The translations under genes were made by a program, and so were the position numbers. From NCBI GenBank assembly GCA_944386645.1, contig CALXBW010000001.1, positions 8,947-72,946 of the forward strand: a stretch of DNA of 64,000 bases. The letters run 5' to 3'. The notes beneath the pieces are model-generated. The model ran no database searches, was not told the DNA's origin, and saw only the letters and a list, made by a program, of their open reading frames with translations. Numbering within the stretch: position 1 is the first letter of the stretch; each line of letters opens with the position of its first letter. Source of the DNA: an uncultured Clostridia bacterium (GTDB taxonomy: Bacteria; Bacillota; Clostridia; TANB77; CAG-508). Shown piece after piece: positions 36,632 to 43,963 of this stretch.

Positions 36632-36667
36632 GAACAAAGCGAGCAAAGCTCGCTTTGTTCATTCTTC
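36632..36667 (+). terminator. rho-independent terminator after adhesin D
   Basis: gaacaaagcgagc-aaa-gctcgctttgttc hairpin followed by a T-rich stretch. Confidence 0.6.
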
Positions 36668-36706
36668 ATTATTGGATATTTGCTGCAACCATCGGTTGCA
36701 AATATT
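36661..36706. repeat. junction motif J copy 1: attcttcattatt + GC-rich hairpin TTGCTGCAACC-ATC-GGTTGCAAA
   Basis: Related motifs at 37690-37733 and 43726-43792 share the (c)attc…ttcattatt arm plus a 6-8-bp GC-rich stem with a 3-nt loop. Confidence 0.45.
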
Positions 36707-36827
36707 AATAATAAATAAAATACTCATATTTTATAAAAAAAAAGAATTATAATAAATACTGATATATTACTAAAAAGTATGCGTACACACAAAAAATAGG
36801 AGGAAATACGAGAGATATTAGTATTTC

Positions 36828-37219
36828 TAGAGATGCTTATCTGAATAAATTGATTAATAAAAAAATAATAGAATGATTAAAGTTATAACAGGTGTAAGAG
36901 GATGTGGAAAGTCATATTATTTTTAAAAACTATTTACTAAATATTGGTGTAAAAAAGAGATGACATATTAGATACACTTGTAAATATGCTTGCTTCATCA
37001 ATAGGTTTGCTTACTAATCCTAAAAAACTTGCAGATACATTTTTATTAAGCAATGGTTTTAAAGGGGTAACTAATAAAACTATTAGCACATATATAAATT
37101 ATTTATTAGAATCATATTTAATAAGGCTAACAGGTATGATAAAAGAGAAAAAATATATATCAACACATTCTAAATATTATTTTGTTGATGTTGGACTACG
37201 TAATGCAAGATTGAATTAA
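36828..37219 (+). pseudogene. degraded remnant of a DUF4143-type AAA ATPase gene (N-terminal …RDAYLNKLI…ITGVRGCGKS… fragment plus C-terminal …KYYFVDVGLRNARL fragment)
   Basis: Multiple stops and frame changes. Only the 77-aa ORF 36986-37219 is intact. Motifs are typical of the widespread 'ATPase, DUF4143' family. Confidence 0.4.
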
Positions 37220-37340
37220 GAAATCTCTTAAAATAAATAATTTTTACTTGAATAAAATCGAAAAAAATTGTAATATATTACCAACCTTTCTATGCAAAAA
37301 AGGTAGTCTTTAACATAAGGACGGAAAGGGGGTAAACGAG

Positions 37341-37448
37341 ATGACACAATCAGACCTTGTTCTACGATTGGTTGAAATGCTTTTGGAACAAAAAGAACAA
37401 AATGAAAAACAATCAAAAGTAGAGGAAAACAAAAAGAGTAAAGACTAA
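37341..37448 (+). CDS. candidate small protein (35 aa, MTQSDLVLRLVEMLLEQKEQNEKQSKVEENKKSKD) with strong RBS and downstream hairpin-T-run
   Basis: RBS aaagggggtaaacgag precedes the ATG. CAGGA-ACTT-TCCTG hairpin plus a T-run lies ~40 nt after the stop. GC-richer than surroundings. Confidence 0.25.
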   Translation: MTQSDLVLRLVEMLLEQKEQNEKQSKVEENKKSKD

Positions 37449-37689
37449 ATGTGTCATTACATAGTCGAAGTGGGAAAGTATTACAGGAACTTTCCTGCTT
37501 TTTTAATGTAGAAAAAGAGAATATAGTAAGAATTGTTCTATACAATAAAAAAAGTATGTGTATTACAGGTACACATACGAGTAAACAATATACATAATCA
37601 GACCTAGAGTACATTGCTTAATGTACTTATATAATAGCATATTTTTTTAGTTCTGTCAAAATAATTTTAAATATACTTGTATGAAAAAA

Positions 37690-41300: not shown

Positions 41301-43368
41301 GAAACATACATATAGAGAATTAGAAAAATATGATGAAATAGGAAGAGAAATAGAATACAGTATAATAGAAACAGAGAAAAATCCAGGAGATTTAGAATAT
41401 TATGAAGAACCAGAAATAGGAGGAACAAATGATATAATAGTAACAAATAAATACAAACTAAAAGAAACAGCATTAAAGAGTGATATAACAAAAGAAACAG
41501 AAACAGTAATAACAGCATCAAATCAAGAAGTACCATATACAATACATTATGAAGCAGAAATAGATGAGTACATAGGAGATGCGATAGTAACAATAGTAGA
41601 TGAGCTACCATATAAGATAGATGAAGAAAAGTCAAGCCTAGATGGAGGAGTATACAACGAAGAGTTACAAACAATAACATGGACAAAAGAATTAGGACAT
41701 ATAAATACAGACACATCAGAAGAAGCATATAAAGTAGATATAACAAAAAATATAGTACTAGTATACAAAGACTTAGATGTAACAGAAAGTATGGTAACAA
41801 ACAAAGTAAAAGGAACAGTGGAATTATATGAAACAGAAGAGAAAAACACAGTAGAAACAGAAGAAAACACACAAGTGGAAGTAGAAGGAACAGTAGTAGT
41901 AAAATATGTGGAAAAAGAAACAGGAAAAGAGCTAGAAACTGCGGATGAAATGACAGGAATAGTAGGAGAAGAATATATAACCTTAGCAAAAGATATAGAA
42001 GGATATAGCTTAGTAGGAGATACAGAAAATACAAGAGGAGAATATAAAGAAGGAACAATAGAAGTAATATACTACTACGAAAAGACACCAGCAAAAGTAA
42101 TCATAAAATACCAAGATGAGGAAGGTAATGACTTAATACCAGAAAGAGTAGTAGAAGGATATGTAAGCCAAGAATATGAGACAAAAGCAGAAGAAATAGA
42201 AGAATATGAACTAAAAGAAGTAATAGGCCAAGAAAAAGGAGAAATGACTAAAGATGATATAGTAATAATATATGTATACAAAAAGAAAGAAGCAGGAGGA
42301 GTAATAGTACATTACATAGATAAAGAAACAGGAGAAAAACTAGCAGAAGATGAAGTAATAGAAGGAAACATAGGAGAAGAATATAAAACAGAAAGAAAAG
42401 TAATAGAAAATTATCAAAAAGCAGAACCAGAACCAACAAACAAAGAAGGAACAATGGCAGAAGAAACAATAGAAGTAACATATTATTATGAAAGAATCTC
42501 AAGTGGAAAAATAACAGTAAAATATGTAGATAAAGAAACAAAAGAAGAAATAACATATGAAGATGATACAGGAGAAGAAAAGACATATGGATATGTAATA
42601 AAAGGATATATAGGAGAAGAATATAAAACAGAAGAAAAAGAAATACCATATTACAAGATAGTAGAAAACATGTTACCAATAAATAGAGAAGGAATATTAA
42701 GTCAAAATGATGAAACAGTAACATACTATTATGAAAAGATGAGCTTCAACATGGAAATAAGTAAGAAGGTAAAGACAGTAACAATAAAAGGAGAAGAAAA
42801 AGAAGTAAGTAATGGAAGCTTAACCAAAGTAGAAATACATAGAAAAGAAATAACAACAACCCCAGTAGAAATAAGATATGTAATAACAGTAAGCAACACT
42901 GGAGAAATAGACGGAAAAGGAGAAGTAATAGAGAAAATACCAGAAGGATTTGAAGTATCAAGCAATAATCCAAGTGAATGGGTAATTAATGTAGATGGAA
43001 CAATGAAATATGCAGTAGAATTAAAGGCAGGAGAGAGTAAAGACATAGAAGTAGTATTAAAATGGCAAGCAAGTGAAACAAACTTTGGAGAGAAAAAGAA
43101 CATTGCATTAATAGATAATACAGAAAATCCGGCAGGATTTGATGAAGAAAATGCAGAAGACAACAAAGCAGAAGCAACAGTAATAGTAACAGTAGCAACA
43201 GGAAAAGAAGTATCAATATTAATAATAGTATTAGGATTTATAGCATCAGCAGGAAGCTTAATATTACTATATGAGTATGAGCTATACAGGAAAGAGAGAA
43301 ATCAACCAGTTAGAATGGTAAAACTAGGAGGTAAAAATGTAGTAATTAAGAAAGAAGTACAGAAATAA
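38350..43368 (+). CDS. giant secreted surface protein, A-type head with divergent body (1672 aa): signal-anchor, head homologous to A/C/F, DUF11-like and CnaB domains, four MucBP-like repeats (…VKYVDKETGE…YYYEK), C-terminal …VTVATGK + TM + charged tail
   Basis: ORF track start is GTG 38341; the RBS aaggggtg supports ATG 38350. Head alignments: FDAYF…GYLK…, …YILYIELSYPLEAYNS… vs A …YLITYTYPESAYKS…. Confidence 0.8.
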   Translation: MENFNNKERKNLFKRVEKMKKMQKGKNANVKSKSIQKLVMMSAVLVLIIMLILMVFRQNAIIISRQNPEYYRAMTYDEVQPGDEATNSEYVQFDAYFLKDINSDGNADKVRGTCNEIGTSDDLWMELKVDRNGYLKDAKITINSKQTNENGNFYFATEIAADSQIKNNYISTNTREIEFNTLENGTQITLSGKVNSSIDAEYHYKWDTAIRTENDYSKINSIVLTGTHVEELADGSTKETKIEKRVEFQVDWYGTLDIELLSSNNQTNDADIILDKEQGLLNIKFNVNLLDTKTSSSQLLFKTGHIEGILPEINGYSPTDIRLVNDHYGSTISYDEHTRKFTIEGNDFDDNDYQYILYIELSYPLEAYNSENDSEKSIEIPVKGWIEGYNNPNDEFQKIYKSNEVDTTLTIKLMREVIVPSINCIVGDDLNIYKYNVGSNYIVSKEKPARIYNGISETETEDYYRVQWTVSFSRNNGYLQNGVILKESKEGDKSDEFIKSDKSTDSMENVTTNVGIYLHDNLNIILGENGWIKVYNDDEIGGEPIVTFTKENWSQYNSEENMYKYAEPVKHIRIETSAIDTSSFGSSTKFLYVYNIKELDDSYITTKYETKEEFDNLKEIKSYVYLYTQTSVGEKEAIAYYIADYIYPITGVGMDLDDNRLYYDKAIVSTQQERDMKIRIGIPENNNGIDYDSDNRKFLSKWVDGEYLIKLPKDIIDLKINSITPDKENIQITSYETYEEEGNIYIKIKTKNETPENYQGKMTYKDTEVIYYYKLKESSITSTIEKTATANKVETQEDGTKIPVLTNERGQVTYNIKYNAEVNDYIGKVKIIVTDTLPAAIDETSSDLAGGIYDAEERTITWEEEVNVDTYTNGKYTHNFNKVVKLVYVDQDVTEDLVNTVNGETKIYYPDNYPEKGGEEVKTDEDEGTATVKQEYKVDKNVEKIWEDNNNSKGKRASSVMIELTADGEVVENSQVELNSRNGWKHTYRELEKYDEIGREIEYSIIETEKNPGDLEYYEEPEIGGTNDIIVTNKYKLKETALKSDITKETETVITASNQEVPYTIHYEAEIDEYIGDAIVTIVDELPYKIDEEKSSLDGGVYNEELQTITWTKELGHINTDTSEEAYKVDITKNIVLVYKDLDVTESMVTNKVKGTVELYETEEKNTVETEENTQVEVEGTVVVKYVEKETGKELETADEMTGIVGEEYITLAKDIEGYSLVGDTENTRGEYKEGTIEVIYYYEKTPAKVIIKYQDEEGNDLIPERVVEGYVSQEYETKAEEIEEYELKEVIGQEKGEMTKDDIVIIYVYKKKEAGGVIVHYIDKETGEKLAEDEVIEGNIGEEYKTERKVIENYQKAEPEPTNKEGTMAEETIEVTYYYERISSGKITVKYVDKETKEEITYEDDTGEEKTYGYVIKGYIGEEYKTEEKEIPYYKIVENMLPINREGILSQNDETVTYYYEKMSFNMEISKKVKTVTIKGEEKEVSNGSLTKVEIHRKEITTTPVEIRYVITVSNTGEIDGKGEVIEKIPEGFEVSSNNPSEWVINVDGTMKYAVELKAGESKDIEVVLKWQASETNFGEKKNIALIDNTENPAGFDEENAEDNKAEATVIVTVATGKEVSILIIVLGFIASAGSLILLYEYELYRKERNQPVRMVKLGGKNVVIKKEVQK

Positions 43369-43473
43369 AATAGTATACAATTACTAAAAAAGTAATAAAA
43401 AATTGGATTTGACATATAATAAAATATGCTTTATAATAAATATAGCATATGCAATAAAGTACGTAATAGTAAT

Positions 43474-43513
43474 AAAAAAAGACTAGGTTTGTGCAGAACC
43501 TAGTCTTTTTTTT
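43474..43513 (+). terminator. rho-independent terminator after adhesin E
   Basis: aaaaaagactaggtt-tgtgcaga-acctagtctttttttt. Confidence 0.6.
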
Positions 43514-43725
43514 AGTCTTGGTTATCTGTAATAATCAGATAAAGAATAACTAAGACTAATATTTTTATTTAAAGTACGCAATAGTTTCACCCCTTTCTTC
43601 TTTTCAGAAAAAAGACTAATTTATTATATTTAAATTGTGTCAAAATGTCAATAAAACTATTTTTTTAAATTATAAAATATTATCAATTTTCTTACTTACT
43701 CAATAAATTTAATTCTTAACTATTA

Positions 43726-43792
43726 GCCATTCACTATTCACTCTTCATTATTAACTATTAATTATTAATTGCAACCAAAGGTTGCAATTAAG
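43726..43792. repeat. junction motif J copy 3: agccattcactattcactcttcattatt…aatt + hairpin GCAACC-AAA-GGTTGC, upstream of adhesin F
   Basis: See 36661-36706. The 13 nt after it (tcaaacataaata, 43795-43807) also match positions 1-13 of the window. Confidence 0.4.
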
Positions 43793-43963
43793 GCTTCAAA
43801 CATAAATATTACAAAAATGTAACAAAAATAATACAAAAATTACATAATTTATTACAAAACAGTGGAAATATACCAAAAAATGTGAGATAATATAATAGTA
43901 GTGTAGTTTACAATATAATAAAAGTAATAATTATAAATTAATATAAATATAGGAGGAATAATT

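Follow-up and report, generated by a model that had tools for sequence, protein, structure and literature searches.

A heptamer-array/hairpin repeat dispersed through intergenic DNA of uncultured gut Clostridia and found at the edges of variable segments

We analyzed a 64,000-nt stretch of DNA from an uncultured Clostridia bacterium (contig CALXBW010000001.1, positions 8,947–72,946; hereafter the window, to which coordinates refer unless a comparison locus, numbered L001 and so on, is named), in which a block containing E, the gene for a MucBP/Cna_B protein, lies between the second and third pairs of adhesin genes. A reading made from the sequence alone (the sequence-only reading) had described three related motifs around this block. 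We found all three at the places it had given and call them M1 (36655–36700), M2 (37690–37728), and M3 (43716–43791). M1 lies 38 nt past the stop codon of the pair-2 adhesin gene, immediately behind the canonical intrinsic terminator of that gene (GAACAAAGCGAGC-AAA-GCTCGCTTTGTTC, 36632–36660, forward strand), which is not part of the repeat although its T-tail enters the M1 heptamers; the terminator also precedes the orthologous M1 copy in sister-species locus L023. Between M1 and M2 lie the pseudogene remnants of an AAA_14/DUF4143 ATPase (36800–37220, forward strand; DUF4143 fragment called in L001), and M2 separates these from E. M3 lies 172 nt upstream of the start of pair 3 and is preceded by a sequence resembling another repeat module, module A (ttttcttacttactcaataaatttaattc, 43686–43715, forward strand), that is found ahead of many sister-species copies.

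The three copies, all on the forward strand, share a common anatomy: tandem TTCAnnn heptamers run, in identical phase, into a GC-rich hairpin with a 7-bp stem and a 3-nt loop (TGCRACN-NNN-NGTYGCA), the unit cores being TTCA or the degenerate TTAA/TTGG. In M1, the array (36655–36683; TTGTTCA TTCTTCA TTATTGG ATATTTG) has two good units (TTCA at 36658 and 36665) and two degenerate ones, followed by the hairpin TGCAACC-ATC-GGTTGCA (36684–36700; DNA fold −6.3 kcal/mol, z −3.7). In M2, three units (37690–37711; TTCTTCA CCATTCA TTATTCA T, with TTCA at 37693, 37700, and 37707) precede TGCGACT-GAA-AGTCGCA (37712–37728; −7.0 kcal/mol; ortholog at L031 1686–1702), whose stem differs from those of M1 and M3 at two positions, each compensated on the opposite arm. 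M3 has the longest array, with eight units (43716–43769; TTAACTA TTAGCCA TTCACTA TTCACTC TTCATTA TTAACTA TTAATTA TTAAT; TTCA in three, TTAA in four, TTAG in one), and its hairpin TGCAACC-AAA-GGTTGCA (43770–43786; −11.1 kcal/mol, z −6.1) can be extended to a 12-bp stem (43765–43791). The stem-loop of the original description thus stands, whereas the "cattc(a/t)ttattca arm" assigned to it proved to be this phased array of 7-nt periodicity.

A combined pattern of array and hairpin (TTCANNNTTCANNNTT-N(0-21)-TGCRACNNNNNGTYGCA) matched the window three times, compared with 0.00 expected from 100 dinucleotide-preserving shuffles, ruling out a chance or low-complexity artifact. About 10 perfect GC-rich mini-hairpins occur in the 64 kb, and TTCA heptamers precede only those of M1–M3. 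A covariance model built from 27 aligned family copies, run over the whole window with filters off, scored M1, M2, and M3 at 56, 60.8, and 65 bits, respectively, and the rest of the window at no more than ~18 bits; it detected no further copy, its sole other matches above that score being reverse-strand reads of the M1–M3 palindromes themselves.

The motif is a dispersed repeat of intergenic DNA in this group of uncultured gut Clostridia and is not confined to the E block. A pattern scan of one genome per species returned 33 stretches, of which 11 (13 matches on 9 contigs) came from a single sister species, the metagenome-assembled genome "uncultured Clostridia bacterium BRZ_HH__bin29" (bin29), which is about 85% identical in nucleotide sequence and whose loci align to the window at about 80–87% identity, and one from BRZ_PA__bin81. 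With a relaxed hairpin search and the covariance model, we counted at least 25 bin29 copies, all intergenic, in ~75 kb that had been chosen because it bears the motif; five lie within 4 kb in L023, and L005 has three tandem hairpin units. A stricter pattern applied to metagenomes gave five matches, four on low-GC contigs with the same element and the fifth on a 65% GC contig (three TTCACTG units and GCGAC-GACTA-GTCGC). Two matches on viral contigs look like chance hits in coding DNA, and we rejected an association with phage. Approximately 23 of the 27 copies are co-oriented with neighboring genes, 15–60 nt past a stop codon or between co-directional genes; copies follow tatD, a gltD-like gene, a mini-RNase III-like gene (mrnC), and ATPase genes, and reverse-oriented copies lie 8 nt after the groEL stop and 17 nt after the mazF stop. 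On related contigs, the hairpin ends 3–5 nt from genes for tRNA-Lys, tRNA-Pro, and tRNA-Glu. The sequence-only reading had tied the motif to the insertion of the E block, which is at odds with so many copies elsewhere, including near groEL, tatD, and mazF. It had also named, as evidence that would count against it, a motif widespread in the genome and lacking any link to insertion/deletion borders: the motif is indeed widespread, but copies do edge variable segments.

Across the 27 copies (consensus TTCATTGCAACCnnnGGTTGCAGAT), the core element is a 6–7 bp GC-rich stem-loop (GCRAC...GTYGC) behind two to eight phased TTCAnnn heptamers, and the stem covaries. Stem positions G2, C3, A5, and C6 and their partners are invariant, whereas pair 4 is A-T in 20 copies and G-C in six, and pair 7 is C-G in 19 and T-A in five; 93.7% of cells are paired, compared with 15–35% after sliding of the 3′ partner. 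The loop sequence is variable (ATC, GAA, AAA, TTT, GCA, CTC, and others). In the alignment, two to six TTCAYYA units stand 5′ of the hairpin, usually behind an A-run and TTA, and the hairpin is most often followed directly by GAT or GTTAAAT; beyond these, flanks on either side are unrelated between copies, and the element is intermixed with other repeat modules. Copies occur in tandem and in inverted arrangements. A long form (L019, L035, L037, L039, and L016) has an additional inverted array, (TGAAnnn)5-TACA, and a ~30-nt spacer upstream, so that its two arrays can pair into a long stem.

Comparison of orthologous loci placed the copies at a consistent border. Orthologs of five regions were available from bin29: L019 corresponds to window 1–2171, L009 to the region upstream of pair 1, L023 to the end of pair 2, L031 to the DNA from M2 to E, and L005 to that from M3 to pair 3. 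Immediately 3′ of the hairpin, 150 of 200 positions are identical between species at M2, 181 of 200 at M3, and 191 of 200 at a copy upstream of spoIIE, versus 116, 129, and 120 of 200, respectively, 5′ of the array; the latter values (58–65%) are the background level for this AT-rich DNA, and at all three copies conservation on the 3′ side of the hairpin extends as far as the next gene. M1 is the mirror image, its upstream side (adhesin gene and terminator) being conserved and its downstream side unrelated. At four orthologous loci, then, the copy sits exactly where conserved DNA meets unrelated DNA. The ATPase-M2-E arrangement is common to both species (L031), indicating that M1 and M3 do not delimit a recent insertion of E; the DNA after E differs between species (L018 versus the window), and the break falls again at a motif copy. 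Of the proposal that the motifs bound the block between pairs 2 and 3, what holds is that they edge variable segments; a recent insertion of E does not, and nothing shows M1–M3 to be attachment sites made by insertion of E. The assemblies that cover pair 3 terminate within E, a few hundred nucleotides upstream of M3, and the exact E protein has no database record. Separately, the region upstream of the E homolog has a (GA)n run of ~11 units (L031 ~1990–2010; the window has GAGAGATATATA at ~38135–38150), a possible simple-sequence switch in the ~600-nt leader of E.

A graded series of genomes, obtained via TatD homologs, allowed us to follow individual copies within and between species. In the window species, seven of seven contigs share one identical short copy that separates spoIIE from another adhesin gene (L064 3115–3156), and seven of seven have no copy after tatD. 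In bin29, an identical long-form copy follows tatD in seven of seven contigs, and the spoIIE site retains only a decayed remnant (AATGACT-TTT-AATCGCA). A sister species at 95% identity has no copy in 20 kb, and M3 is identical in a second strain. Identity in all seven contigs within each species, together with presence, absence, or decay between species, indicates that copies are old, with fixation inside a species and gain, loss, or erosion from one species to another. Unit number also differs between orthologs: M3 has one hairpin unit versus three in L005, and M1 has 2+2 heptamers versus five in L023, which in addition has an inserted module A. Relative to its L031 ortholog, M2 has a G-C pair in place of an A·C mismatch and a T-A pair in place of C-G. 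The spoIIE-site copy, ~5.9 kb upstream of the window start on same-species contigs, is the real fourth copy. The sequence-only reading had instead placed one just outside the window, on the strength of a 13-mer behind M3 (tcaaacataaata) that recurs at window 1–13. The recurrence is genuine; those bases, however, lie inside an open reading frame (ORF) that is already open at base 1 and whose homolog in L019 (1930–3153) is a 407-aa gene, making the match a chance one rather than the flank of a copy.

No partner enzyme was found near the copies. The sequence-only reading had stated that the window has no recombinase, and neither a recombinase nor a transposase turned up in the scanned window ORFs or the flanking DNA covered; no integrase was present among those ORFs or the genes called around copies. 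Searches by tblastn with IS200 TnpA, IS608 TnpA, and E. coli RAYT (REP-associated tyrosine transposase) sequences gave nothing at E<1 for a Y1 transposase or RAYT in the window and the loci searched. ORFs between copies encode the DUF4143 ATPase, DUF3800 proteins, a nucleotidyltransferase, and adhesins. The ATPase was considered as a cognate mobile gene or enzyme: in the sister species, its genes are intact and bracketed by direct motif copies (L031 322–1641), and among the DUF4143 genes and fragments of this lineage (L031, L020, L023, L009, and the window pseudogene) a copy lies ~110–170 nt upstream in six of six cases and another directly downstream in five of six. The family (also in L046 and L056), however, has thousands of metagenome relatives at 78–91% identity, many on very short contigs and repeatedly adjoining giant sortase-type adhesin genes, and 22 contigs with homologs in this range from other organisms carry no motif; the lone model match among them (L045) falls between ftsK and another ORF, by a different hairpin. 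The ATPase is therefore a neighbor and not the partner enzyme; its adjacency to adhesin genes is conserved. We also rejected the mobile elements at an intergenic insertion hot spot at window ~2175–2400: IS66, present there in some window-species strains (L067/L070 11356–13819), carries no motif, and the IS91-type Y2 transposase with a tyrosine recombinase that occupies the same spot in the 95% sister species (L071 11488–13493) has ends without it.

Taken together, the copies are dispersed, structured, orientation biased, variable in unit number, fixed within species, decaying between species, and found bordering variable segments. With moderate confidence, we interpret M1–M3 as members of a lineage-specific interspersed hairpin repeat, similar to repetitive extragenic palindromes (REPs) and miniature inverted-repeat transposable elements (MITEs), that marks, and probably promotes, intergenic rearrangement. 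Copies would spread in trans by a non-local enzyme that recognizes the hairpin in its folded state; single-stranded DNA is the most plausible substrate, by analogy with REP/RAYT or IS200/IS605-type ends, and the heptamer array and hairpin units would expand and contract by slippage. Many near-identical hairpins could then provide the end-points, or the substrates, of template switching and recombination, and accessory segments such as the ATPase pseudogene block, E, and other modules may have become bracketed by copies in this way. If co-transcribed with the upstream gene, the hairpin probably doubles as a 3′ stem-loop, as REPs do.

Several observations weigh against this interpretation. Neither strand of the 27-copy consensus has the GTAG or CGTC tag that marks classical REPs, and with no match to a Y1 transposase or RAYT in the fetched DNA, mobility is deduced from dispersal only. 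Seven strains per species revealed no within-species polymorphism and thus no sign of current activity. A clean pair of filled and empty sites with a target duplication was not recovered at tatD or spoIIE, where the tatD site has a nested replacement, the long-form copy standing in place of half of another repeat (element S, itself absent from the 95% species), and the spoIIE site has a decayed orthologous copy; nor did we find an empty site with a single motif, which the sequence-only reading had proposed to look for. The sister genome was sampled only in the motif-selected ~75 kb, and co-orientation with genes and a position in the 3′ untranslated region (UTR) suit a role in RNA equally well.

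Comparison with known systems delimits the family further. REPs are GTAG- or CGTC-tagged extragenic palindromes mobilized by RAYT, a Y1 HUH transposase (PMC3733652). The family here resembles REPs, BIMEs, and REPINs in having a short GC-rich palindrome with many intergenic copies, often just behind genes; in occurring singly, in tandem clusters, or as inverted pairs that are fixed within and variable between species; and in potentially serving both as a 3′ stem-loop of mRNA and as a substrate of recombination (PMC3733652). The REP survey makes no mention of Firmicutes or Clostridia, and the host here belongs to a low-GC Clostridia lineage (PMC3733652). In size and copy number the family also conforms to REPs (palindromes of 20–40 bp with many intergenic copies), at 17–27 nt with three copies in the window and at least 25 in the sister species. 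Unlike REPs, it has no GTAG/CGTC tag, a shorter stem (6–7 bp), no RAYT match in the window and the loci searched, and an obligatory phased TTCAnnn array that REPs lack. The family is a previously undescribed heptamer-array/hairpin element and not a member of the classical REP super-families; a literature search for a heptamer-plus-hairpin repeat yielded analogs only.

Pneumococcal BOX (in which the number of boxB units varies), RUP, and the Correia elements of Neisseria are modular MITE-like repeats of 100–300 bp with terminal inverted repeats and target duplications. The family shares with them a modular, intergenic build, variable internal units, co-transcription with neighbors, and mixing with other modules, but its minimal unit is ~35–65 nt, ends in a hairpin, and shows no target duplication. 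By the standards of MITEs, the hairpin of the long form lies outside its inverted arrays, M1–M3 have no inverted partner, and no junction shows a duplication. Cyanobacterial short tandemly repeated repetitive (STRR) heptamers are tandem 7-nt repeats. The TAACTGA heptamer direct repeats of Beggiatoaceae, Cyanobacteria, and some Bacteroidetes (PMC4679880) likewise form intergenic tandem arrays of two to many 7-nt units at many loci, with stop codons in all three frames of one strand and no known function; those units, however, are perfect, lie a few nucleotides upstream of start codons, and have no hairpin (PMC4679880), whereas the units here are imperfect (TTCAYYA), always phased to a GC hairpin, and 5–620 nt from the next start codon. 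The subterminal hairpins of IS200/IS605 also lie near a conserved tetranucleotide (TTCA here; TTAC, TCAA, or TTGAT there) in direct orientation, and show the strand bias expected for single-strand transposition; unlike in those elements, there is no tnpA or tnpB between copies, the tetranucleotide repeats every 7 nt, and an element body is missing. The ribbon-helix-helix omega repressor binds contiguous WATCACW heptads at promoters of inc18 plasmids. Those heptads share the 7-bp period but differ in sequence, and the locus here is chromosomal, with copies behind genes.

The alternative that survives best is a cis-acting RNA element: U-rich heptamers and hairpin would form a 3′-end, processing, or stabilizing module, or an insulator before the next promoter, kept by selection. 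We consider this a serious possibility, albeit an unlikely one. It accounts well for the co-orientation of most copies with the upstream gene, for reverse-oriented hairpins 8–17 nt after the groEL and mazF stops, and for compensatory stem changes. No canonical terminator lies within 200 nt in ~20 of 26 copies, leaving the motif hairpin as the only GC-rich stem-loop there, and the inverted arrays and T-run of L016 would make a terminator after groEL. Clostridia have documented 3′ stem-loops linked to the selective processing and stabilization of RNA (SRPS), and these resemble the family in being stable, in lying in 3′ UTRs or intergenic regions among co-directional genes, and in needing no U-tract; they are, however, locus specific in sequence, in contrast to the near-identical repeats with a heptamer array found here (PMC4423207, PMC8219983). 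The same comparison counts against an RNA role, as functional 3′ stem-loops normally vary in sequence and GC·AC/GT·GC is invariant in 27 copies. M1, moreover, sits behind a perfectly good terminator, and there is no U-tract behind the hairpin in M1–M3 or most other copies: a terminator scan that detected 36632–36660 detected none of the M1–M3 hairpins, and even a lax T-tail rule accepts just 5 of the 26 hairpins of the family, excluding them as intrinsic terminators. A known RNA family was ruled out, since the motifs of the window and of nine loci gave no Rfam match at E≤1. Strand asymmetries give weak hints in the same direction. The small hairpin has no G-U pair on the forward, gene-sense strand, and its nine C·A mismatches would be G-U pairs on the reverse strand (eight of the nine at the outermost stem position, which may not belong to the stem); in the long-form arms, G-U pairing favors the forward strand in two cases and the reverse in two. 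Tandem hairpin units and decay between species are further features that resemble repeat dynamics.

Substantially less probable is the proposal closest to the sequence-only reading, which had suggested recombination or attachment sites at cassette junctions: a site-specific recombination site, or the terminus of a cargo element, at which cassettes (DUF4143 ATPase, E, DUF3800, toxin-antitoxin) are moved by a distant recombinase. The border pattern, in which interspecies homology starts or stops exactly at the motif at four loci, bears out that suggestion in part, and L023 and L009 resemble arrays of accessory-gene cassettes separated by motifs. The association with DUF4143 genes, the hairpin ends beside tRNA genes, and contigs that break at motif sites also fit. 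A site specific to insertion, or one resembling attC or another core site, is not borne out. Integron cassette arrays share with the family a folded single-strand hairpin between direct-oriented accessory genes and homology borders at the site, but attC sites are 57–141 nt long with R''-L''/L'-R' cores (GTTRRRY), extrahelical bases, and IntI beside attI, none of which is present here; the motif is a perfect 7-3-7 palindrome, its GTTGCA is incompatible with the attC core GTTRRRY, and no intI or attI was found beside copies. The palindrome is too small for a 6–8 bp crossover region, no integrase, resolvase, or HUH enzyme was found in the window or loci, and housekeeping genes (groEL, tatD, and mrnC) are flanked by copies too. 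ATPase homologs at 78–91% identity exist without the motif in other organisms, presence/absence variation among strains was not seen, and the ATPase-M2-E arrangement is ancestral to both species.

We regard as similarly improbable a variant in which low-GC gut Clostridia have an undescribed recombination or transposition system that is specific for single strands and for which array and hairpin are the recognition site or constant 3′ terminus. Entry or exchange of new DNA would always take place 5′ of the hairpin, which would generate the cassette-like arrays of adhesin-linked ATPases, toxin-antitoxin, and DUF3800 genes. A double-stranded protein-binding site, with heptads bound cooperatively by a ribbon-helix-helix type protein beside a palindromic operator of 17 bp at which a dimeric regulator or nucleoid protein would act, would suit the strict 7-bp period, invariant TTCA core, fixed phase to the palindrome, direct and inverted arrays, and invariance of five of seven stem positions, but is very unlikely, given that the two variable stem positions co-change on both arms within one genome, something not required of a symmetric operator, that copies lie behind genes rather than at promoters (no promoter-like hexamers overlap M1–M3), and that no candidate binding protein is linked to the motif.

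Several look-alikes outside this group, selected by pattern, have at least three phased TTCAnnn units abutting a TGCGAC...GTCGCA hairpin; they came from Saccharibacteria, Prevotellaceae (L021), Fimenecus (Oscillospiraceae; L024), and the 65% GC contig (L036). Having been selected in this way, they do not allow a claim of relatedness to the Clostridia repeat; they also show an upstream inverted heptamer array, a feature absent from the search pattern, so that a recognition module shared between phyla is conceivable. In Saccharibacteria, a conserved intergenic element (L004 ~6340–6460, L012 ~4650–4770, and L013 ~460–580) lies upstream of a likely pth gene, called from its N-terminal GLGNPG sequence alone, and consists of (TGAATCA)n, a spacer, (TTCATAA)3–4, and the hairpin TGCGACC-GGA-GGTCGCA. 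A Shine-Dalgarno sequence, GGAGG, falls within its loop and 3′ arm, 2–4 nt ahead of the start codon, making it a possible translational control hairpin.

The intergenic regions that house the repeat are mosaics of further modules: module A, a ~220-bp palindromic element, modules B and C, and element S. Element S (window 1722–1830 and 3207–3320; L064 2915–3050) is a second repeat, with folds of −40 to −51 kcal/mol (z −8 to −13), that comprises an A-run, a long outer stem of varying sequence and preserved pairing, a conserved inner core (UUGUAACUCCCAGC...GCUGGUYCCCACGAAUUGUUAC), and a U-run. Nothing in Rfam matches it, and it has the look of a structured RNA or of an elaborate terminator working in both directions; a sister species lacks it at the tatD site, where a AGTACATT duplication flanks it. 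The ~220-bp palindromic, MITE-like element lies between a NUDIX gene and the next gene (window 54383–54604; −48.9 kcal/mol, z −8.3), has copies of 73–75% identity in L005, L009, L016, L018, and L023, and in three cases immediately precedes a heptamer/hairpin copy on its 5′ side. The mosaic also includes a small hairpin module, GC-rich (GGGGAGAACAGTGTTCGCCC, or GGGCGAAC-ATT-GTTCGCCC), that recurs between genes in both species (window 2275–2300 and 13205–13290; L023 ~1730–1760). A DUF3800-I RNA (Rfam RF02969, 65.9 bits; L023 2974–3099, reverse strand) lies beside a DUF3800 gene, between two copies of the repeat. Separately, RNase HII is encoded by a split gene, with one ORF of 137 aa and one of 80 aa (window 10400–10813 and the following ORF; L064 19550–20180), in the window-species contigs where the region was fetched, through a frameshift or as a programmed feature.

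If the REP/MITE-like interpretation is correct, M1–M3 belong to a new interspersed hairpin repeat family in a clade known only from metagenomes, with an architecture, a phased heptamer array joined to a conserved stem-loop, that fits neither REP super-family. Such repeats break assemblies, and contigs of these species end at or near copies. Under the same interpretation, copies would mark sites where adhesin and accessory-gene regions are reshuffled and could be used as strain or species markers. The consistent position of copies at the border between conserved and variable DNA provides a test case for whether hairpin repeats cause rearrangement or merely survive where it occurs, and should a dedicated enzyme exist, it would represent a new mobile-DNA or RNA-processing system.

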